A DNA stretch of 64,000 nucleotides from positions 22,755 through 86,754 of the forward strand of contig PLRV01000025.1 of the NCBI GenBank assembly GCA_003164925.1, read 5' to 3'. How positions within the stretch are numbered: position 1 is the stretch's first letter; every line of letters starts with the position of its first letter. Positions 36,916-48,892 of the stretch are shown here, piece after piece. The notes beneath the pieces are model-generated. The model made no database searches, was not told the origin of the DNA, and was given only the letters and a program-made list of their open reading frames with translations. Both the position numbers and the translations under genes were made by a program. The DNA comes from Caulobacteraceae bacterium. Lineage in GTDB: Bacteria > Pseudomonadota > Alphaproteobacteria > Caulobacterales > Caulobacteraceae.

Positions 36916-38394
36916 TTAGCTCGTTCGCGTGCGTTCTAATTGGCGCGAGGCGAGCATACCGGCCGCAAGCCGGGAGTCGGCGTCGATGCGGCATGCGAGG
37001 CGCCGCAGCGCGGCCTGGGCTTCGGTGCAGACCGAGGCGGGCAGCGGGCTTGACCCGAGCCGCTTGATCAAGACCGCCAGGCGGCCAAGCCGCAGGCGCG
37101 TTGGATCCGGCCCGGAACGCACCTCGACTTCAAAATTGTGGCGCTTGACGAGGGCGCACAGGCGCCGTCCCAGTTCGGCCTGCGCGGTCGCGCCCCGCGC
37201 GATTTCGATCATATCGATGATGGCGTCCACATCTTCCAGCGCGCTGCGGCAGCAGGCCAGCCGTTGATCGACAAAAGCTTGGCTGGAGAGCCGAGCCCAG
37301 CAGGCGACTTCGGCGGCGGCCATAGCTTCCTGGTCGATCAGCGGCCCGCAACCGTCCAGTAGGGCGAATCCGGTTTGGACCCCGTTGATTTCCCCCATGG
37401 GATCGCCTGGCCACAGGCGCGATTGGCTGGCCAAAACGTCGACCACGCGGGCCGCAGCTGCGCGGCGTACGCCCACAAGGCGCGCTGAGCCGTGCAACTC
37501 CAGCGCCAGTCGCGCGCCCAGTCCATGCAGGCTTGTCAGCGAACGCCGCGCGTATGGAAGCTGCTTGGCCGCCTGCACGGCCGAGGGCGGCGCGACGATG
37601 CACAGCAAGGCCAGCGCCTGGGCGCCGGGGGCGAAGTGCGGTCCGAATATCTGCGCTAGATCGCCGTGGACGCCAAGGATCTCGGTCAAGGGCTCGCGCG
37701 CCAGCGAACGCTCAGCTGGCGCCCCCTCGCTGATCAGGTCGAGCAGGATCTCGACCTTGGCCGCCCAATCTGGCGCGGGCCTCAAAGCTGCCGCCAGGGT
37801 GACGCCGGAACGCAACAAGGGCTCGTCCGCGCCGTCTGCGTCCAGCCGGCACAGGCGGTCGATCGCGCGCCGCGCCAGACGGCCGAGCGCCTCGCGCGTG
37901 GACTGTTCCGCTCCACCCCGCTCAGCGCCGTCAAGCGCGGTTGCGGCTTGGACCGCAGCGCTGAGCTCAGCTGCGCAGGCCTCCAGTTGTTCGGCCAAAT
38001 CGGCGCGGTGCAGAAGCTCGAACGGCGTGACGCCATGGCGCGCTAGCCAGTCGCCCAGGACGCGGCCGATCACCGCCCTGGCCCTAGCGCTATACAGATC
38101 CTGGGGCCAGGAGCAGGCCGGTAGCGGACTTGCCTGAACCGATGGGCGTCGGGCTCCGGCTGGGACCTTCAGGCGCGTCAGCGGACCGCGTTCGAGCAAA
38201 ATGAGGCTGCGGAACAGGCCCGAGGCCGGATCGCGGGCCTCCTTGGTCACCCGCACCGCGCCGGCGCCAGAGGCAAGAGCCTCGTCGGCCGCCGTCAACA
38301 CAGCCGAACGACGCTCGCTGGCGAGCGTCAACGCCCATGCCGCCCGTCGATGGCGGCGCACGAATAGCTCGAAATGAATCAGGCCAAGTGGCAT
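36916..38394 (-). CDS. Hypothetical protein, 492 aa, Ala/Leu/Arg-rich, no TM segment or signal peptide
   Basis: A long ORF with an ATG start and no competing sense gene. GC-rich third positions fit a real gene. I do not recognise any family. Confidence 0.5.
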   Translation of the reverse strand: MPLGLIHFELFVRRHRRAAWALTLASERRSAVLTAADEALASGAGAVRVTKEARDPASGLFRSLILLERGPLTRLKVPAGARRPSVQASPLPACSWPQDLYSARARAVIGRVLGDWLARHGVTPFELLHRADLAEQLEACAAELSAAVQAATALDGAERGGAEQSTREALGRLARRAIDRLCRLDADGADEPLLRSGVTLAAALRPAPDWAAKVEILLDLISEGAPAERSLAREPLTEILGVHGDLAQIFGPHFAPGAQALALLCIVAPPSAVQAAKQLPYARRSLTSLHGLGARLALELHGSARLVGVRRAAAARVVDVLASQSRLWPGDPMGEINGVQTGFALLDGCGPLIDQEAMAAAEVACWARLSSQAFVDQRLACCRSALEDVDAIIDMIEIARGATAQAELGRRLCALVKRHNFEVEVRSGPDPTRLRLGRLAVLIKRLGSSPLPASVCTEAQAALRRLACRIDADSRLAAGMLASRQLERTRTS

Positions 38395-39141
38395 GGCGCA
38401 CGACTCCCACGTGAGAATTTCCGAAATGCAGGGCCGGAATTCTTCCGTGGACGCGCTGTGGCGACCTGACGCGAAAAGCTTGCGCCGCCCGCGTTTCAGC
38501 TCGGTTAGCGGATATGGTGAACGGCGCGCTAAGCTGCGGCCGTTTGTTTAAGCCCGCTTTGAGTCATGCAGCGCGGTAATGACCGATCGGCGCCAATTTC
38601 GGTCATTTGCATCCCGCTCGAAAAGCGACATCGCCGCCCTGCGGCACGAGTAAGGAACATCGGCGGCCTTCGGTCCATGCAGGGCCGCACCCTTGCGGAC
38701 CCGGGCACGAGCGCTGTCAAGGAGATTAGGTCAGCGGAGAGAATCGACCTGTCACGGACGATTGGGAGGTCCACTGTGGGGCCACAGTCATGGGATCTTC
38801 GGACTGGACGAGAACATCGCTGATCACTGCTGCGAGGCCTAGAAAGAATCGCCGATCAGCCTTAGCGCATCATGTCTATCGGACTGCGAGACTGGGAGCA
38901 TCGGTACTAATCAGCGCCGGTTGGTGCAAGATATTTTTGATCTACTGACGATGCAATCATCTGTTCCGGATATTATTTTCCGTAGACCATAACATACTCC
39001 ACAATATTCCGCGCTTATCATTCTTGATACAATTTTGGGCGGGGCGCTTGCTGAAAAATACTGGCTTGGTCTTTGCATCTCCTTTTGGCATCGATCGGCA
39101 ACCGCCGACGAAATTATGGCGCCTACATTGGAGATACCCCA

Positions 39142-40383
39142 ATGACTATAAGCAGCATCAACGGGGGGGGCAGTGAAAGCCTACTCCTTCAGCAATTAAT
39201 GCGGATGGAATCGTCTGCCGCCGCCAACACGAACGGCCAGGCAGATTCCTCCCAATCGGCACTATCTGCCTCAGGTACGCAAGGTCCGCCGTCCGCCCCG
39301 CCTCCTTGGCCGAGTAATAATGGATCAGATCTTTTCAGTTCCGATACATTGTCCAGCCTGAGCTCGACGCAAGCAAACTCCAGCGGAAGTTCGACATCAT
39401 CGTCGTCCGGATTAGACGCCATGGCATCGAGCTTGGCGTCCCAACTGATCAGCAATTATGGCTCGGCGGGGGATGGCGCCATCAGCCTGTCGGATATCGA
39501 GTCAGCGTTAGGCTCCAGCGCAAGTTCCTCCACATCGACGTCATCGGTCTCCACAGGCGCGGACACAAGCGGACTGGCGAGCGCATTTTCAGCTTTGGAC
39601 ACGAACGGCGACGGCAAGCTAAGCCAATCGGAGCTGGCAAGTGGTTTGGAGGCCATGTTCAGTCAAGCCGCGGCCTCCGGCGGGCCGCCTCCAGGTCCGC
39701 CGCCGGGCAACATCCCGGATGGCTCATCCACCACGTCTGCGACAGCAGCGGCCACCAGCACCGGAACAAGCGACGTATCAAGTTCGAGCACATCAAGCTC
39801 GACGGCCAGCACTTCGACTTCGACTACGGATCAGACTTCTGCGGCCCAGCAATTGGCGCAAGTCTTAGGGAGCCTTCTGACGCAGCTAGCCCAAGCTCAG
39901 TATGCGGACGTGAGCCAACTGACATCGGATGGCTCATCCACCACGACGGGAGGAGCCGCTAGCACTGGAACAAGCGACGCTTCAAGTTCGAGCGCATCAA
40001 ACTCCTCGGCCAGCGCTTCAAATTCCAGTACGAATCAGACTTCCGAGGCGCAGCAGTTGGCGCAAATCCTGGAGAGTTTTCTGGCGCAGCTGGCTCAGGC
40101 CCAGTATTCGAGCATCGGCCAATTGGCGTCGAATGACTCATCGACCAACACGGCCTCTTCGGCAGGCGCAGGCGCTAGCACCGGAATAAGCGGCGTTTCA
40201 AGTTCGAGCACATCAAGCTCAGCGGCCAGCGCTTCGAATTCGAGCACAGGGCAGACGTCTGAGACGCAGCAACTGGCGCAAGCCTTGCAGCACTTTCTGG
40301 CGCAGGCGGCTCAAGCCCAATATGCGAATGCGAGCCAATTAATGAACGTGAGTACTCAACAATCGACGACAGTCACGGCGTAG
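39142..40383 (+). CDS. Ser/Thr-rich EF-hand protein with three about 70-aa tandem repeats
   Basis: ATG 39142 is preceded by GGAGA (7-nt spacing). There is a canonical EF-hand loop DTNGDGKLSQSE (39598-39633) preceded by a degenerate one (GSAGDGAISLSD). Three repeats each combine an S/T-rich stretch with QQLAQxLxxFLAQxAQAQY. Confidence 0.7.
   Translation: MTISSINGGGSESLLLQQLMRMESSAAANTNGQADSSQSALSASGTQGPPSAPPPWPSNNGSDLFSSDTLSSLSSTQANSSGSSTSSSSGLDAMASSLASQLISNYGSAGDGAISLSDIESALGSSASSSTSTSSVSTGADTSGLASAFSALDTNGDGKLSQSELASGLEAMFSQAAASGGPPPGPPPGNIPDGSSTTSATAAATSTGTSDVSSSSTSSSTASTSTSTTDQTSAAQQLAQVLGSLLTQLAQAQYADVSQLTSDGSSTTTGGAASTGTSDASSSSASNSSASASNSSTNQTSEAQQLAQILESFLAQLAQAQYSSIGQLASNDSSTNTASSAGAGASTGISGVSSSSTSSSAASASNSSTGQTSETQQLAQALQHFLAQAAQAQYANASQLMNVSTQQSTTVTA
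39718..40350 (+). repeat. Coding tandem repeat, 3 units (210 + 207 + about 216 nt)
   Basis: Unit starts are at 39718, 39928 and 40135 (GATGGCTCATCCACCACG / GATGGCTCATCCACCACG / GACTCATCGACCAAC). Each unit ends in ...GCCCA(G/A)TATGCG... Confidence 0.85.
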
Positions 40384-40841: not shown

Positions 40842-42245
40842 TCACCCAACAGCTCGAGGCAGTACGACTTCAGCGATGAGGCCCCTGGCGCCGGACCGAA
40901 GCACGACGTCCCCGCCGTGACTTCGTGCGACGGCCCGGGCGATTGACAACCCCAATCCAACGCCGGTCGACTGCTCCTGCCGGGCTGCCTCGGTTCGGTA
41001 GAAGGGCGTGAACACCCTTTCCAACTCACGCTGGGGCAGGCCTGGTCCGTCATCGATGATCGTCACGACCGCCGCGCCGTCGCGCTCGGCGAAGAAAACC
41101 TCCACCCTTGCCCCGTACTTCACGGCATTGTCGATCAGGTTGGCGAAGAGACGCTGCAAGCCCACGGCGTCGCCGTCGACAACGAGGGGCGGCGCGAATG
41201 TCGCGCACACGTCCGCGCCGCCCGTCGCCGCCTCGTCCGCCGTGCTGATGACCAACGAAACCAGATCCAGCCGCTGGCGGACGCTGGGCGTCGCATGGTC
41301 TTGGTTGAACGCGATAACGCCATCGATCATGTGCTCCATCTGTCGCACATCGGAAAGGACAGCGGTCCGGAGCGCAGGCTCAACCTTCTCCAGCTTGAAC
41401 CGAATGCGGGTGAGCGGGGTGCGCAGATCGTGGGATATCGCGCCGATCATGCTGACGCGGTCCGCGACGTAGCGCTGCAAACGAGTCTGCATGGCGTTGA
41501 AGGCGCGCGCCGCCACGCCAATCTCCGCTGGACCTGATGGCGCTATCGGCGAGGCCTGGGGATCGCGCCCCAAGGTCTCCGCCGAGGCCGCGAATCCGCG
41601 CAGGGGGGCCGATATCCGCTGGGCAAACCAGAACCCGATCGGCCCCATGATCAGCAGGCCACCGCCGACCCAGACGATCGCACGACGGATCCATTCCAGA
41701 TCGGGCTCCGGTTCAACGATCGCCCACTTCTCATCGGGCCGTCGCCAAGCCGCGGCAAATTCGCCGCGCAAAGTCAACATCTCCAGGCCGGGAGGACGGA
41801 AAATCTCCAGGCCGGGAGGACGGAAATCCAGCGGGAGCTTGCCGGGCGGGCCGCCAAAGCCGGGACCTGCGCCCGGGAACCGAAGCGGCGGCCCCAGGTT
41901 CAGCATGAAGAAGGGGGGCGGCCCCCGACGAACCAGGCGAATTCTCTCTTCGGGTGATCCCATGACTTGCGCCAGGCGGCTCAGGCTGGGGTCTGTTTGC
42001 CGTCTCAATTCCGTCGGCAGGTTAGTGGCGACGCTGCGGCGCAGACGGCGCCCCTGGTCGCTCGCCAGGGATTCGCCCTTGAGAGCCGCGGCCACTTGCA
42101 CAAAACTGTAAATCGGCGGCGGCGAGGGCGGCAGGAGGAAGACCGCGAGGATCGTGACGCCCTGGGCGGTGATCACGGTGCTAAGCACCAGGATCATGAC
42201 CTGCGCCGTCAAGGACAACCGGATTTTGCCGCGATCCACGCTCAT
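40842..42245 (-). CDS. Two-component sensor histidine kinase (HAMP-HisKA-HATPase)
   Basis: Two TM segments. H-box SMIGAISHDLRTPLTRI, N-box LIDNAVKY, G-boxes DDGPGL and GVGLGLSI. The ATG overlaps the response regulator stop as ATGA. Confidence 0.85.
   Translation of the reverse strand: MSVDRGKIRLSLTAQVMILVLSTVITAQGVTILAVFLLPPSPPPIYSFVQVAAALKGESLASDQGRRLRRSVATNLPTELRRQTDPSLSRLAQVMGSPEERIRLVRRGPPPFFMLNLGPPLRFPGAGPGFGGPPGKLPLDFRPPGLEIFRPPGLEMLTLRGEFAAAWRRPDEKWAIVEPEPDLEWIRRAIVWVGGGLLIMGPIGFWFAQRISAPLRGFAASAETLGRDPQASPIAPSGPAEIGVAARAFNAMQTRLQRYVADRVSMIGAISHDLRTPLTRIRFKLEKVEPALRTAVLSDVRQMEHMIDGVIAFNQDHATPSVRQRLDLVSLVISTADEAATGGADVCATFAPPLVVDGDAVGLQRLFANLIDNAVKYGARVEVFFAERDGAAVVTIIDDGPGLPQRELERVFTPFYRTEAARQEQSTGVGLGLSIARAVARSHGGDVVLRSGARGLIAEVVLPRAVG
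41779..41826 (-). repeat. Perfect 24-bp tandem duplication inside the kinase sensor domain
   Basis: ATCTCCAGGCCGGGAGGACGGAAA occurs twice on the plus strand. It encodes FRPPGLEI/FRPPGLEM in frame. Confidence 0.95.
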
Positions 42246-43484: not shown

Positions 43485-44627
43485 TCAGGATCCAACCGGA
43501 ATGTCACGGCCGCGATCTTCCAGGCCCAGAGCCTTGGCGGTGGCGTGATCGTATGCGCCGCGGGTCAGGCCCTTATCCCGCTGGAAACGAACCATGGCCA
43601 GCTGCACGGCGGCGGTGAAGCGGCCGCTCAGCGGTCCGTCATAGTAGCCGTGCCTCTTCAGGGCTTCCTGCAGGGCCAGGGTGCGATAATCGCCGCCCCG
43701 GGCCAATGCGCCCTCGCGGTAGGTCTCACGCGTGGTGGTGACGACAGAGGATTGCGTGCTCACCACCGGCGCCGAGCGGATCGCCGGAGCGTCGTTCGCG
43801 CCCAGACGCACCGGCGAGACATTGTCCGCTTCCGGCTGGCAGTCGACTTCCTTCCAATCGAAATGGGTCGCCGAGATCAGGCGCTGCTTGGTCACCGTCT
43901 TGTAGGTGGCTGGGATCACCACTGAAACGGTTTGTTCAGGGGTGACCAGCTTGGTGATGCGCACCGTCTTGTAGGTGGCCGGAATCTGGTGCTCGATCAC
44001 TCGCCCCGGTTGGTCGATGACCTGCCGCGTCACTGTGGTGGTGATGGCCGGCTCGAGGACATCGCGGGTGGTTTCGGCCTGACGCACGACGTTGCGCGTC
44101 ACTGTGCGGTATTCCGCCGGCACCTGCACAAGACAGATCACTTCTCCCGTCGCCAGCACCTTGGTCGTGCCCGGCATGATGATGTCGCTGGGCGAACGCT
44201 GGCCGCGCTTCCATTCGGTGTGCGCTTCACGCACCAGAACCTGCTCAGATTCCTCGGCGTAGACCGCTGGAACATCAACCTTGCGGGTCGTCTCGGGCTT
44301 GACGACGATCGTCTCGGTGATGGTCTTGTAGGTCGCGGGGATGGTCTCGTATTCGACGCGCGCCTCGGTCGCGACCACCTGCCGGATGTCGTCGGCATAG
44401 ACAGCCGGCACCACATGCAGATCTGTGTGTTCGGCGGTGTCGACGACCTTTTCGGTGTAGGTCTCGTACTGTTCCGGCACCAGCAGCTTGCCGTAGCAGT
44501 GTCCGGCCACGGCGTTAGGCGGAAGATCGCTCGGAGCAATGCCTACATTCGGGGGCTGCGCGCCTGCGGCGCCGGCGGCCAACAGGATCAAGGCGCCCGA
44601 AGCGACCCCACTCAGATGAACACGCAT
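43485..44627 (-). CDS. Exported repeat protein with a C-terminal PG_binding_1 peptidoglycan-binding domain
   Basis: Signal peptide MRVHLSGVASGALILLAAGAAGAQ. About 8 copies of a (V/I)PAxY(K/E/R)T(V/I)T-type module. C-terminal LALQEALKRHGYYDGPLSGRFTAAVQLAMVRFQRDKGL. ATG 44627 with a GAGGG SD. Confidence 0.8.
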   Translation of the reverse strand: MRVHLSGVASGALILLAAGAAGAQPPNVGIAPSDLPPNAVAGHCYGKLLVPEQYETYTEKVVDTAEHTDLHVVPAVYADDIRQVVATEARVEYETIPATYKTITETIVVKPETTRKVDVPAVYAEESEQVLVREAHTEWKRGQRSPSDIIMPGTTKVLATGEVICLVQVPAEYRTVTRNVVRQAETTRDVLEPAITTTVTRQVIDQPGRVIEHQIPATYKTVRITKLVTPEQTVSVVIPATYKTVTKQRLISATHFDWKEVDCQPEADNVSPVRLGANDAPAIRSAPVVSTQSSVVTTTRETYREGALARGGDYRTLALQEALKRHGYYDGPLSGRFTAAVQLAMVRFQRDKGLTRGAYDHATAKALGLEDRGRDIPVGS

Positions 44628-45095
44628 CTCACCCTCGTTTCGAGACACAGCTGCCTACCGGAAATTCAGCGGCCTGCGCAGAAGTTAAAATTTATTAATA
44701 GTGGTTAAGCTTCGAATGCAAAGGCATTTTCCAATGGATTCAATTCTTAGGGGAAAACTGGCATTGGCAGACCTAGTTGGCTGAATAGGAAATGGGACGC
44801 GGCGACCTTCCCAACACAAGCCACCAAAGCGGGCGCCGTGCTGATCTGAGGCCGGCCCAGGGCGGACGCCGCTGCAACCGTGGTCAAAGCCTTTTTCAGA
44901 GAACCTATTGCATCTTCCAAGGTCTGAAACCGCTGCGGCGCGGCTTCATCAGGATGCAGAACCAGCACGCCCGATGGGAGGCCAGGAGCCGACACTGGGA
45001 CCGATCCGGGAAGGCGATACTCGCTTTGACACCGAGTGGCGAGTTCGACTCCCCAACAGGGGTTGAGTGAAACGCTCGCGATCGGGGTGGTCGAC

Positions 45096-45572
45096 CTAAG
45101 GGCCGTGGGCCAGACGCGACACCGAAGGCGCTTCCGAGCGACCAATCATCCTGGGCCCTATCAGGGCGTCGAGCGACCAGCCGCCGGGGCCGCGCAGGAC
45201 GAGCACGACCATGAACGCCAGCCATTGGATGTGGGTCGGCCAGGCGTCAGGATAGATGAAGAGCTGGATGGTGAGGGTCATGCCGAGCAGGGCCAAGGTC
45301 GAGATGCGCGTGGCGAGCCCGACCAGGATCAGGCTGGAGCAACACAGCTCCATGGTCGCGGCGGTGTAGGCGGCGACCACAGGCGGCAGGACCGGGGTGT
45401 GGTACTCGTTCTGGAACAACAACAGGGTCGCGTTCCAGTCCGACAGCTTCTGCGTCCCCGAGCGGATGAAGACGCTGAAGGTGGCGAGGCGGGCGATCAG
45501 GGCGATTACGGAATAGGGCACGGCGTCGAGCGCGGCGACAGCGCGGCGGATCGGTTGAGCGAAAGGGATCAT
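45096..45572 (-). CDS. DoxX-family membrane protein (last gene of the bufferin-type operon)
   Basis: 158 aa with 4 TM segments in a DoxX-like pattern (RLATFSVFIRSGTQKL...MELCCSSLILVGLATR). The ATG overlaps the upstream stop as ATGA. Confidence 0.8.
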   Translation of the reverse strand: MIPFAQPIRRAVAALDAVPYSVIALIARLATFSVFIRSGTQKLSDWNATLLLFQNEYHTPVLPPVVAAYTAATMELCCSSLILVGLATRISTLALLGMTLTIQLFIYPDAWPTHIQWLAFMVVLVLRGPGGWSLDALIGPRMIGRSEAPSVSRLAHGP

Positions 45573-46333
45573 CGGTCGGTTTCCAGAGTCGGGGACATGG
45601 TGAGGCGCGCGAACGGCGCGGCGAAAATCTCGGTCTGCAAAGCAATGAGGTCGGCGCCTTCGGCGAGCGCGGCTTTGAGGGCGGTGTCGGGCGCGGCCCC
45701 GTCCAGCAGGGCGGCGAGGAAGGCGAAGGCGGCCGGGCCGAGCGGTCGGATCGCGGCGCCGGCCGGAACGCGCCAGAGGACGCGCCTATAGCGGCCGGGC
45801 GCGAGATCGACGGCCCCCAGCGCCGCGTCGTCTCCGGTCTCGATGGCGTCGCGGATGGCGGCGGCGGGGTAGGTCAGGTCCAGGAGGCGGATCGAGGCGT
45901 CCAGGGTCAGCAGCATCTGGCCGAGATCGATGACGCCGCCGTCCGCTCCGACAGACAGGGCGCCCACCTCCTCCACCACCGCATCGAGCCGCGCGACGTC
46001 GACGAGATAAGGAATGTCCGTGGCCGGAGCATAGGTTTCGAGAAAGGCCGGGAAGTCCGCGCCGTAACCGGTAAGGCAGGCGCGGGCGGGCGGGTGGACG
46101 GCGACGAAGGCCAGGGCGGCCTGGTCGAAGAAGGCCTCGCCGACCAGGGCCTCGGCCGTGGGGAAGGTCAGGCGCAGGGCGTTGCTAAGAGCGCAGAGCA
46201 CAGTGTTGCGATGCAGGCCGAGGGCTTCCTGCGCGGCGACAGGTCCGGCGACGATCTGGTCGCCGAGAGCGGCGAAACGGCCGTGCAGCAGGGCGTCGGC
46301 CATCCGGGTCTGCAGAGATATCAGGTCAGGCAT
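45569..46333 (-). CDS. bufC: DUF2063-family protein (MNIO partner, MbnC-like role)
   Basis: 254 aa. An N-terminal LQTRMADALL...HRNTV...ALRLTFPTAEALVGEAFFDQAALAFV...YGADFPAFL pattern as in DUF2063. The start overlaps the DUF692 gene by 8 nt. Confidence 0.8.
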   Translation of the reverse strand: MPDLISLQTRMADALLHGRFAALGDQIVAGPVAAQEALGLHRNTVLCALSNALRLTFPTAEALVGEAFFDQAALAFVAVHPPARACLTGYGADFPAFLETYAPATDIPYLVDVARLDAVVEEVGALSVGADGGVIDLGQMLLTLDASIRLLDLTYPAAAIRDAIETGDDAALGAVDLAPGRYRRVLWRVPAGAAIRPLGPAAFAFLAALLDGAAPDTALKAALAEGADLIALQTEIFAAPFARLTMSPTLETDR

Positions 46334-47267
46334 GGGCGGCCTCGGGGACGGGAGCGCGGTCCATGGCGGCCAGATCGAGGATGAACTGGGCGGCGGCGGC
46401 CTCTTCCTGCAGGACGTCGAACGCGGGGAGGGCGGTGTCCCACTCGATCAGGGTCGGGCGCGGGCCGAGGCGGCGGATGGCGGTCTCGTAGAGGGCCCAG
46501 ACTTCGGGGCACACGCGCGAGCCGTGGTCGTCGACGCGCACGGCGCGGCCGCTGTCGAGCGGGCACACGGCGTGGCCGGCCAGGTGGATTTCGCCGATCG
46601 CTGCTGCGGGAATGAGGTCGAGATAGTCGGCCAGCGCCCGGGCCGGATCGCCGCCCTGGTTCATCACGGCGACCTCGATGTTGTTGATGTCGAGCAGCAC
46701 GCCGCAGCCGGTGGCGCGGGTCAGGGCGGCGAGGAACTGGGCCTCGCCGAGGACGGATCCCGCGAACCGCAGGTAGGTCGACGGATTCTCGATGAGGATC
46801 TGGCGGCCAAGCGCGTCCTGCACCCGGTCGACGTTGGCGGCGACTACCGCCAGGGCTTCCTCGGTATAGGGCAGTGGCAGAAGGTCCGGCAGATGAAGCG
46901 GGCCCGTCGGCAGGCTCGCGGCGCTCCAGGACAGATGATCAGATACCAGGCCCGGGCGCACGCGACGCTCCAGCGCCTTCAGCCGTGACAGGTAATCGGC
47001 GTCGATCCCGCAGGCCGAGCCCAGTGACAGGCCCACCGCGTGCAGCGACAGGGGATAGCGTTCGGCGACGCCGGCCAGTTCGTCGGCCAGGCCCGGGGTC
47101 ATGTAGTTCTCGGGGTGAACCTCGAACCAGGCGGCGGCGGGCGCCGTCTGGCGCACGACGGCGTGGTGCGGCAGGCGCAGCCCGATCCCAGCCTCGGCGG
47201 GGATCGGGCGCGCGCCGCGGGACACGGCGTCGGACGACGCATTGGCGATGAAGCTGTGCAAGGTCAT
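46326..47267 (-). CDS. bufB: DUF692 / MNIO (multinuclear non-haem iron oxidase, MbnB-like)
   Basis: Motifs GIGLRLPHH, WFEVHPENY, LHAVGLSLGS, SDHLSW, LLPLPYTEEAL, LIENPSTY, LLDINN, EIHLAGH, LIEWD. ATG 47267 with a GAGGA SD. The track start 47282 is TTG. Confidence 0.9.
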   Translation of the reverse strand: MTLHSFIANASSDAVSRGARPIPAEAGIGLRLPHHAVVRQTAPAAAWFEVHPENYMTPGLADELAGVAERYPLSLHAVGLSLGSACGIDADYLSRLKALERRVRPGLVSDHLSWSAASLPTGPLHLPDLLPLPYTEEALAVVAANVDRVQDALGRQILIENPSTYLRFAGSVLGEAQFLAALTRATGCGVLLDINNIEVAVMNQGGDPARALADYLDLIPAAAIGEIHLAGHAVCPLDSGRAVRVDDHGSRVCPEVWALYETAIRRLGPRPTLIEWDTALPAFDVLQEEAAAAQFILDLAAMDRAPVPEAAHA

Positions 47268-47295
47268 GACGCCGGTCCTCAAGTCCGAGCCTAGA

Positions 47296-47568
47296 TCACA
47301 TCGCCTTCAGGGAGCCGCCGGCGATCTTGGCGCAGGCGCCCTTGGGCAGGTAGACGAAGGAGGTCTTGTCCATGTCTCTGGTCGCCTGACCGGCGCAGGA
47401 ATGGGCGCCGGCGGCGCAGTCGTTCTTGGCGGCCTTGGCGACGCCGTAGCACTTCTCGGACATGGCGGGCTGGGCGACCGGCTGGGCCGAGGCCGAGCCG
47501 GCGGCGGCGGCGGCAGACAGGGCCAGGGCGCCGAGGATGGTGGTAGCGACGATCTTTGTGGGGCTCAT
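47296..47568 (-). CDS. bufA: DUF2282-type RiPP precursor (bufferin-like): Sec signal + 4-Cys core
   Basis: 90 aa: [28 protein letters not shown] | [71 protein letters not shown] lies 7 nt before the ATG. It is the first gene of the operon. Confidence 0.85.
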
Positions 47569-47612: not shown

Positions 47613-47648
47613 GTAACCAGTTGTTCGTTGCGCCTCGGCGAAGGTTAC
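47613..47648. promoter_or_regulatory. Inverted GTAACC...GGTTAC pair holding an ECF-type promoter candidate for the precursor operon
   Basis: The minus strand reads TGTAACC-N15-CGAA (CGAA at 47624-47627), about 55 nt upstream of the bufA-like ATG. A second candidate on the plus strand is GCGAAC (47591-47596)-N15-CGTAA. Confidence 0.4.
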
Positions 47649-47690
47649 AGGATGCTCGGACGAATTTTTCCGGGCGGGATTTGGGGGCGG

Positions 47691-48251
47691 ATGAACGGCG
47701 TCGAGCAGGACCGGCAGTGGTCCGGGTGGATGGCGAAGGCGCAGGACGGCGACAACGCCGCCTATGCCCAGCTGCTGCGCGGGATATTGCCGTTCCTCAG
47801 GGTGCTGGCGCGACGGCGCTGCCGCGATCCGGACCGCTGCGAGGACATCGTGCAGGACGTGCTCTTGACCCTGCACCGAGTGCGTCACACCTACGACCCC
47901 GCGCGGCCGTTCACGCCCTGGCTGGCGGCCATCTGCGACCGGCGCTCGATCGACGCCTTGCGCAAGCGCGTGCGGCAGGCGAGCTATGAGACGGATAACG
48001 CGCGCGCGTATGAAACCTTTGCCGACCCCGCGTCGAACAAGGAAGTGGACGCCGGCGACGCGGCCCAGGCCCTGGCGGCCCTCGTCGCGCAATTGCCGTC
48101 CGCCCAGCGCGAGGCGCTGGAACTGGTGAAGGTGAAGGAGATGTCGCTGCTGGAGGCTTCGCAGGCGTCGGGACAGTCGGTCGGAGGACTGAAGATCAAC
48201 GTGCATCGCGCGCTGAAGGCGCTGCGTCTGCGCGTGGGGGCGAGCGAATGA
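47691..48251 (+). CDS. sigF: ECF (group IV) RNA polymerase sigma factor, SigF-like by synteny
   Basis: Region 2 ([46 protein letters not shown]) and region 4 ([41 protein letters not shown]). The start is uncertain (47652, 47691 or 47730). The stop overlaps the next gene as ATGA. Confidence 0.85.
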
Positions 48252-48892
48252 ATACCGACGGTCTGATCGCCGAACTCGCAGCTTCCGCGCCGCCGGTAAA
48301 GCGCCTGGCTCCGCCGATGACGCGCGCCTTTGTTTGGCTGCTGGCCGTGGCCGCCATCGCCGCTGTGCCGATCATCCTGTTGTCGAACCTGCACGTCTGG
48401 GCCGGCCGCGCCTCCCACCCGCGCATGGCGCTAGAACTTGCCGCCACCCTGGCCACCGGCATCGCCGGCGTGATCGCCGCCTTCCACCTCTCGATTCCCG
48501 ACCGCTCGCCCCGCTGGGCCCTCCTGCCCCTGCCCTTCGCCCTGGTGTGGGCGGCGAGCACCGGCCTCGGCTGCTGGCAGACCCTGGCCGAGCAGGACAA
48601 GCGCGGCTGGGGCCTGTTCCAGAGCAGCGACTGCTTCGTGGTGCTGATGATCGTCGGCATCCCCATGGCCGGGCTGCTGCTGCTCAGCCTGCGCCGCGCC
48701 CGGCCGCTGCAGCCACGCCTGGTGGCGACGGTGGGGGCCGCGGGGGTGGCGGGGCTGGCCGCCTTCGTGCTGCAGTTCTTCCATCCGTTCGACGTGACGG
48801 TGATGGACCTCGGCGCGCACCTGGCCGGGCTGCTGGTGCTGTTCGCGGTGCTCAATCTGTCAGCGCGGCTGGGGCTGGCGGGCCGGGCCTAG
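48248..48892 (+). CDS. nrsF: DUF1109 / NrsF-type membrane anti-sigma factor
   Basis: N-terminus [20 protein letters not shown] followed by six TM segments, the pattern of NrsF-family negative regulators of SigF. It is translationally coupled to the sigma gene. Confidence 0.8.
   Translation: MNTDGLIAELAASAPPVKRLAPPMTRAFVWLLAVAAIAAVPIILLSNLHVWAGRASHPRMALELAATLATGIAGVIAAFHLSIPDRSPRWALLPLPFALVWAASTGLGCWQTLAEQDKRGWGLFQSSDCFVVLMIVGIPMAGLLLLSLRRARPLQPRLVATVGAAGVAGLAAFVLQFFHPFDVTVMDLGAHLAGLLVLFAVLNLSARLGLAGRA

Follow-up and report, generated by a model that had tools for sequence, protein, structure and literature searches.

We analysed a stretch of 64,000 nucleotides (nt) from an uncultured Caulobacteraceae bacterium (GenBank assembly GCA_003164925.1, contig PLRV01000025.1, positions 22,755 to 86,754 of the forward strand), referred to here as the window. 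Positions 45096-47568 of the window encode four co-directional open reading frames (ORFs) on the minus strand, of 90, 313, 254 and 158 amino acids (aa), here named bufA, bufB, bufC and bufD. Genes for a sigma factor and a membrane anti-sigma factor diverge from bufA. Together these very probably constitute the biosynthetic and regulatory module for a Buf1-type bufferin (captophorin), a ribosomally synthesised peptide with post-translational modifications (RiPP). The identification draws on gene content, family membership, conservation of metal ligands and cysteines, a promoter motif and synteny. The features of the locus are:

bufA, 47296-47568, minus strand: 90-aa Buf1-type bufferin precursor (PF10048)
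bufB, 46326-47267, minus strand: 313-aa multinuclear non-haem iron oxidase (MNIO, formerly DUF692; PF05114)
bufC, 45569-46333, minus strand: 254-aa DUF2063 partner protein (PME type 1; PF09836)
bufD, 45096-45572, minus strand: 158-aa DoxX-family membrane protein (PF07681)
buf operon promoter, predicted, 47624-47648, minus strand: SigF-type, for an extracytoplasmic function (ECF) sigma factor, GTAACC-N15-CGAA
sigF-like gene, 47652-48251, plus strand: ECF sigma factor, divergent from bufA (Sigma70_r2 and Sigma70_r4_2)
nrsF-like gene, 48248-48892, plus strand: membrane anti-sigma factor (PF06532, NrsF)

A first-pass annotation, made from the letters of the sequence, had placed four minus-strand genes at exactly the coordinates at which we find the ORFs. 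Gene calls on metagenome contigs that carry identical proteins with the same neighbours (JGI 3300014493 and several Sequence Read Archive runs) return the same coordinates for all four. The 8-nt overlap between bufB and bufC (46326-46333) and the ATGA overlap between bufC and bufD (45569-45572) are as it described them. The 13-nt gap it gave between bufA and bufB has to be corrected: from its own bufB start, the ATG at 47267, the gap is 28 nt (47268-47295). A 13-nt gap is obtained only if the upstream TTG at 47282 is taken as the start, in which case the GAGGA motif at 47280-47276, located 8 nt before the ATG, would fall inside the ORF. The 313-aa ATG form is also the one picked by the gene callers on the metagenome contigs. 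A Shine-Dalgarno sequence, GAGGAG, precedes bufA at 47581-47576. Downstream of bufD is a 447-nt gap (44649-45095) with no Rfam match, no intrinsic terminator and no convincing small ORF, and it shows no similarity to related loci beyond the same species.

In profile hidden Markov model searches all four minus-strand proteins score above the curated Pfam gathering thresholds. The first-pass annotation had staked its reading on a significant match of the 90-aa protein to DUF2282, and that match is found (PF10048, E = 1.7e-23, 82.8 bits against a cut-off of 22.4), spanning profile positions 2-53 of 53. BufA has exactly four cysteines, as claimed, at residues 40, 51, 58 and 79 (EKCYGV, NDCAAG, HSCAGQ and GACAKI). 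The Sec-type signal peptide is likewise recognisable: K5 and a hydrophobic stretch over residues 5-25 are followed by ASA↓QP (A26-S-A28↓Q29). We judged the signal peptide from hydropathy, the -3/-1 rule and agreement with the numbering of Buf1 from Caulobacter vibrioides. It is predicted to comprise residues 1-28 (47568-47485), with cleavage after Ala28. The remaining 62-aa core (47484-47299) would carry CysI to CysIV at core positions 12, 23, 30 and 51, with CysII in the context Asp22-Cys23 and CysIII in Ser29-Cys30-Ala31. The computed monoisotopic mass of this core is 6273.02 Da unmodified, and ~6262.94 Da is predicted for the mature form.

In an alignment of 43 BufA homologues from related loci, all four cysteines are invariant (43/43), and E38, K39, G42, N49, D50, G60 and G77 are invariant or nearly so. 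The loop between CysII and CysIII has 6 residues, the length also found at 31 of 42 loci and without exception in 119 close relatives. The 6-residue loop is thus the majority form of Buf1, and the histidine within it is invariant. An AlphaFold2 model of BufA has a mean pLDDT (predicted local distance difference test score) of 59, with ~65-75 in the core, and shows two strands (37-40 and 72-75) followed by a short helix (78-82). The same arrangement has been published for C. vibrioides Buf1 from nuclear magnetic resonance (NMR): two short strands, the first containing CysI, and a short helix disulfide-bonded to CysI. A sequence search of the Protein Data Bank (PDB) with BufA returned nothing real, the sole hit being a chance match to cytochrome c (E = 0.28). 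The family is large: 1193 matches were found among clusters at 90% identity, and 1277 clusters at 50% identity.

Four representatives of the BufA family (P0197, P0200, P0202 and P0205) reach 164-198 aa and have two DUF2282 stretches each, as tandem bufferin domains. PMC12452194 mentions Buf1/Buf1 fusions, with which these proteins are consistent.

BufB is a confidently identified MNIO (PF05114, MbnB_TglH_ChrH, E = 7.4e-90, 301 bits), as the first-pass annotation proposed for its second gene. It also passes the NCBIfam equivalog NF050167, MNIO_BufB ('MNIO family bufferin maturase'), with 321.6 bits against a cut-off of 310, and lies far below the NCBIfam cut-offs for HvfB, ApyH, MbnB and ChrH. 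Sequence matches in the PDB include the DUF692 protein 3BWW (E = 1.8e-34), TglH and MbnB. All six motifs that had been listed as hallmarks of the family are present: WFEVHPENY (47-55), SDHLSW (109-114), LIENPSTY (158-165), LLDINN (191-196), EIHLAGH (226-232) and LIEWD (273-277). One qualification concerns H51 in the first of these, which is not invariant and is replaced by Ala in 3BWW; the first His ligand is H76, in SLHAV.

Ten residues, H76, H111, E160, D193, N196, H228, D246, H248, E275 and D277, are invariant in 51 of 51 BufB homologues. The iron ligands of Vibrio MbnB are His55, His91, Glu135, Asp165, Asn168, His194, Asp209, His211 and Glu238, and its catalytic residue is Asp240 (PMC8888699). 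The invariant BufB residues match these in order and spacing. In HMMER alignments H111, E160, D193, N196, H228, D246 and H248 stand opposite the corresponding MbnB residues, and E275 and D277 stand opposite the LER-D motif of 3BWW. By this residue-level comparison the predicted multi-iron site is intact, with the full ligand set and the catalytic Asp retained.

The third gene was proposed to encode a DUF2063 protein, and residues 7-98 of its 254 match PF09836 (E = 1.6e-18, 67 bits). A PDB sequence search with BufC gave no match, and its relatives were found by fold search instead. An AlphaFold2 model of the whole protein, built on 46 homologues, has a pLDDT of 93.5 and a predicted template modelling score (pTM) of 0.87. 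The best folds for it in the PDB are TglI (8hci_A, E = 4e-5, template modelling score 0.56) and then NGO1945 (3DEE). TglI is the partner subunit of the MNIO TglH, and the DUF2063 protein NGO1945 is currently placed among the type-1 partners of MNIOs (PME1). The match of the model to these two folds suggests that the third gene acts as BufC, a probable peptide-binding partner with a C-terminal peptide-recognition domain, which may recruit the substrate to the MNIO.

For the fourth gene the proposed DoxX membership also holds (PF07681, E = 3.8e-15, 56.7 bits). The score against the HvfX family NF050144 is 43 bits, below the cut-off of 80. BufD contains hydrophobic segments, and its gene is kept downstream of bufC in 35 related loci. 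DoxX proteins of the BufD type (loci L002-L050) share the motif YP.AWPTHIQW (H114, W117), and the charged residues R28, K42, E56, E75, R89 and D135 are conserved among BufD homologues. The Cys77-Cys78 pair is not conserved among them. In Caulobacter neither modification nor copper protection requires DoxX, and BufD is probably an accessory membrane protein that modification would not need.

The sigma/anti-sigma pair and the promoter lie outside the coordinates of the first-pass annotation and were not mentioned there. The promoter consists of a -35 box, GTAACC (47648-47643), and, after a 15-nt spacer, a -10 box, CGAA (47627-47624), which ends 55 nt short of the bufA ATG. Transcription is predicted to start near 47617, ~49 nt upstream of this ATG. 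The pattern GTAACC-N14-18-CGAA has this one exact match on either strand of the 64 kb, where 0.21 would be expected by chance. The Caulobacter SigF box, GTAACC-N16-CGAA, was defined by 5' rapid amplification of cDNA ends (5'RACE) and reporter fusions (PMC3511200). In 19 related loci a SigF box with a spacer of N15 or N16 precedes bufA by 46-77 nt. These loci span alpha-, beta- and gammaproteobacteria and include Caulobacteraceae, Steroidobacteraceae, Paraburkholderia, Caballeronia, Cupriavidus, Bordetella and others. L001 and L002, the nearest two relatives, keep both boxes and the adjoining part of the 5' untranslated region (5'UTR), whereas the flanks diverge.

A sigma factor gene divergently adjoins bufA in about 22 of 53 related loci, where the six-gene arrangement recurs. 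According to a survey of MNIO clusters, genes for a sigma factor and NrsF are typical of Buf1 clusters (PMC12452194). The nrsF-like gene overlaps the end of the sigF-like gene by 4 nt and encodes a protein with about six hydrophobic segments that matches PF06532 (E = 3.6e-18, 66.6 bits against a cut-off of 26.8). Cys109 and Cys129, between its third and fourth hydrophobic segments, are invariant in 22 of 22 buf-linked homologues. Two conserved periplasmic cysteines of Caulobacter NrsF are needed to keep SigF inactive (PMC3511200). The pair is 20 residues apart here (C109/C129) and 50 apart in Caulobacter NrsF (C131/C181), so the two pairs may not be equivalent. Taken from sequence, the divergent sigF-nrsF pair and the SigF promoter belong to the buf system. 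The conserved position of the box across alpha-, beta- and gammaproteobacterial loci can help regulon annotation and reporter design.

The start of the sigF-like gene may be TTG 47628, ATG 47652 or ATG 47691; N-terminal alignment favours none of these, and metagenome gene calls give a protein of 199 or 186 aa. ATG 47652 is only 3 nt from the bufA -35 box, so a sigF promoter would have to share sequence with the bufA promoter or 5'UTR, or else be located within bufA. We rejected a second GTAACC, on the plus strand at 47613-47618, as a promoter for sigF autoregulation: its spacer to CGAA is 20 nt, and the hexamer reads GCATCC in L001 and L002. The plus-strand GTAACC and the bufA -35 box are inverted repeats of each other. 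The bufA 5'UTR also contains a small hairpin (CGGGGC/GCCUCG) and possible anti-Shine-Dalgarno pairing. The hairpin sequence is identical in close relatives and hence shows no covariation, and the Shine-Dalgarno pairing is not conserved.

By analogy with the Caulobacter system, the inducing signal, chemistry, export and bound metal would be as follows. NrsF would sense metal or thiol-reactive stress in the periplasm, probably through its two invariant cysteines, and release the ECF sigma factor. The freed sigma factor would then transcribe bufABCD from the GTAACC-N15-CGAA promoter. In the cytoplasm BufC would recruit the precursor to the iron MNIO BufB, and the BufB-BufC complex would oxidise Cys51 and Cys58 of BufA (core Cys23 and Cys30) to 5-thiooxazoles. 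The precursor would be exported by Sec and cut by signal peptidase after Ala28, and the outer core cysteines, Cys12 and Cys51, would form a disulfide. The resulting 62-residue periplasmic mini-protein may chelate one Cu(I)/Cu(II) via thiooxazole sulfur and nitrogen (2N+2S) and so buffer excess copper.

Several points weigh against this interpretation. The evidence from the locus itself is of sequence, and the comparison with the C. vibrioides proteins uses residue numbers quoted in the paper. The BufA cleavage site is predicted from the -3/-1 rule and Buf1 numbering, and the BufA model is of low confidence. The sigma factor and NrsF, while above the Pfam cut-offs, score well below the NCBI equivalog cut-offs (for NrsF, 26.6 against 300 bits). 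Depending on the species, SigF/NrsF systems are responsive to Cr, Cd, Cu or hypochlorite, so that the inducing signal at this locus could be any of several. Finally, the CysII-CysIII loop has 6 residues, compared to 7 in the only biochemically characterised Buf1, and the geometry or specificity of metal binding could therefore differ.

In one alternative, the same thiooxazole mini-protein has a target other than copper. This could be another thiophilic metal (Au, Cd, Cr-induced damage) or stress from reactive chlorine or oxidants, and the peptide and DoxX would act as a thiol/redox buffer in the periplasm. Orthologues of the operon initially came to light as gold-induced genes (gig) in Cupriavidus and as Cr/Cd-induced genes in Caulobacter, and hypochlorite defence in Azospira and Brucella is run by SigF/NrsF homologues. 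The bufferin authors themselves expect roles with other metals and possibly a role for DoxX in oxidative or sulfur stress, and the length of the loop is unlike that of the characterised copper binder. However, the 6-residue loop is the majority form and occurs in Cupriavidus sp. (L015), and gig of C. metallidurans is reported to be linked to copper resistance. Offered a mixture of metals, C. vibrioides Buf1 selected Cu, and it also protected cells against Cu. C. vibrioides reporters responded to Cu and gave no response to Fe, Zn or Mn, and other MNIO-PME1 products bind Cu as well. We therefore consider a target other than copper unlikely. Similarly doubtful is a more specific variant, in which the 6-residue loop and its invariant His would confer another coordination geometry or metal preference (Au, Cd, a His ligand), or in which BufD would be a quinone-linked oxidoreductase that keeps the periplasmic thiooxazole thiols reduced. 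If true, such a redox role for BufD would fill the last functional gap in the cluster.

Two further explanations are far less probable. BufB belongs to the same superfamily as MbnB, and heterocycles derived from Cys bind Cu, which would suit a methanobactin-like chalkophore secreted for copper acquisition. That this is what the locus produces is highly improbable, because BufB scores 40.9 bits against the MbnB equivalog TIGR04159, which has a cut-off of 325. Moreover, in place of a short leader-core MbnA there is a 90-aa DUF2282 precursor with a Sec signal, and the partner is DUF2063, not MbnC. The buf operon has no linked gene for an MbnT-type TonB receptor, a MATE exporter or MbnPH, and control by a stress ECF sigma factor suits detoxification better than acquisition. 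The remaining possibility derives from legacy annotation, in which DUF2282 is a 'predicted integral membrane protein' and DUF2063 a 'putative DNA-binding domain', so that the genes would make up a module with a membrane or regulatory function and no part in peptide modification. Identical or related proteins do carry such names from JGI and NCBI ('uncharacterized membrane protein', 'DNA-binding domain-containing protein'). Nevertheless, the only hydrophobic stretch of BufA is its N-terminal signal sequence, followed by the AXA site, and the best structural match of the BufC model is an MNIO partner subunit, TglI. Roles in peptide modification have been shown experimentally in Caulobacter, and Pfam has renamed both families (BufA1 and HvfC_N). 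This reading is contradicted by the published biochemistry of an orthologous system, and we give it hardly any credence. A copper-buffering bufferin thus remains by far the most probable product of the locus.

Housekeeping genes flank the locus, namely recR, ybaB, a ferredoxin gene, sdhABCD, gltBD, those of a two-component system and one for a peptidoglycan-binding protein. Within the 64-kb window we identified no metal-resistance island, no paralogous buf genes and no further exact SigF box, and two tRNAs are the only Rfam matches. The nearest representatives with genomes are metagenome-assembled genomes of Caulobacteraceae, with BufB identities of 80% and 71%.

Some neighbouring genes have features of their own. 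Downstream of the buf operon, past the 447-nt gap, the ORF at 43485-44648 (minus strand) encodes a protein with PG_binding_1 at its C-terminus and four or more 'IPATYKT...' repeats in its interior. The sensor histidine kinase of the nearby two-component system (40842-42245, minus strand) contains an unusual Pro/Gly-rich stretch, PPFFMLNLGPPLRFPGAGPGFGGPPGKLPLDFRPPGLEIFRPPGLEM, between its first hydrophobic segment and HAMP. At 39073-40383 (plus strand) is a gene for a 436-aa Ser/Thr-rich low-complexity protein with a single EF-hand loop, DTNGDGKLSQSEL, and EF-hand is the only family it matches in Pfam. The same protein has three repeats of ~60 aa that end in 'AQQLAQ.L...L.QLAQAQY'. A 492-aa ORF at 36916-38394 (minus strand) has no Pfam match at E <= 1e-5.

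The locus is a typical and correctly recognised Buf1 cluster, real but ordinary, since it belongs to a very large and already named family that has been characterised in Caulobacter. Buf1 clusters of this architecture, including the sigma factor and NrsF genes, have been catalogued in thousands (PMC12452194, PMC13097082), and literature counts reach thousands of Buf1 precursors and more than 21,000 precursors of the captophorin type. Current Pfam names are 'BufA1' for PF10048 and 'HvfC_N' for PF09836, and NCBI names a BufA relative with 84% identity 'BufA1 family periplasmic bufferin-type metallophore'. What the locus very probably offers is a standard copper-buffering RiPP module with a dedicated ECF sigma/anti-sigma switch in an uncultured member of the Caulobacteraceae, and it adds little to published knowledge. 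It is a clean example of the majority Buf1 variant with a 6-residue loop.

The bufferin reading fits every feature of the published C. vibrioides buf1 system (PMC11626156) and of the gig architecture that can be tested from sequence. In C. vibrioides, buf1 (bufA1B1C1D1, CCNA_03363-03366, equivalent to CC3254-CC3257) and sigF-nrsF (CC3253-CC3252) are the same six genes in the same order and with the same divergence. At both loci sigF and then nrsF read away from one side of the intergenic region, and bufA, bufB, bufC and bufD follow on the other. Common to both is a DUF2282 precursor with a Sec signal and four cysteines. The five protein sizes compared are 90, 313, 254, 158 and 214 aa here and 93, 280, 254, 150 and 214 aa in C. 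vibrioides. Cleavage at ASA↓QP would put CysI at core residue 12, as in Buf1. The Buf1 residues are Cys12, Asp22-Cys23, Ser30-Cys31-Ala32 and Cys52 (PMC11626156), giving core cysteines at 12, 23, 31 and 52 as compared to 12, 23, 30 and 51 here, with the D-C and S-C-A contexts shared. Promoter distances are also alike: the Caulobacter transcription start is at -61, and the -10 box here ends 55 nt before the ATG.

By sequence, only small differences separate the locus from the model system. The core is 62 aa long (68 in C. vibrioides Buf1), the CysII-CysIII loop has 6 residues rather than 7, and CysII is followed by Ala in place of Lys. BufB has ~25 extra N-terminal residues. The sigma factor and NrsF remain below equivalog level, NrsF far below. 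For C. vibrioides it has been shown that BufB and BufC form the thiooxazoles, that the product is exported by Sec, binds Cu 1:1 and protects against copper, and that DoxX is dispensable. CysII and CysIII of Buf1 become 5-thiooxazoles, and CysI and CysIV form a disulfide (PMC11626156). Copper binding and protection are established for both Buf1 and Buf2 of C. vibrioides.

The gig locus of Cupriavidus metallidurans and its beta- and gammaproteobacterial relatives share the DUF2282-MNIO-DUF2063-DoxX core, the divergent ECF sigma/NrsF genes and the promoter box. Examples from Cupriavidus (L015), Paraburkholderia (L007) and Bordetella (L020) also have the 6-residue loop found here. In these gig-type relatives BufB identity is only 55-60%, and the precursor cores have an extra N-terminal segment of ~15-20 residues.

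Oxazolin, fontiphorin and gonophorin, captophorins of the HvfABCX type, likewise involve an MNIO with a DUF2063 (PME1) partner and sometimes DoxX. The conversion of Cys to 5-thiooxazole, the Sec-signal precursor and the Cu-associated product are alike. PMC13097082 extends the 5-thiooxazole assignment to other MNIO-PME1 clusters and gives the class the name captophorins. The HvfABCX-type precursors are unstructured peptides of EGKCG repeats, in contrast to the four-Cys DUF2282 domain here, which is predicted to be folded and has no EGKCG repeats. BufB scores 195 bits against the HvfB equivalog NF003818, below the cut-off of 360. More distant is methanobactin, in which MbnABC shares the MNIO fold, the iron ligands and the four-electron oxidation of Cys to a Cu-binding heterocycle. 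It differs in its MbnC partner, oxazolone-thioamide product, type of precursor, export route and role in copper acquisition.

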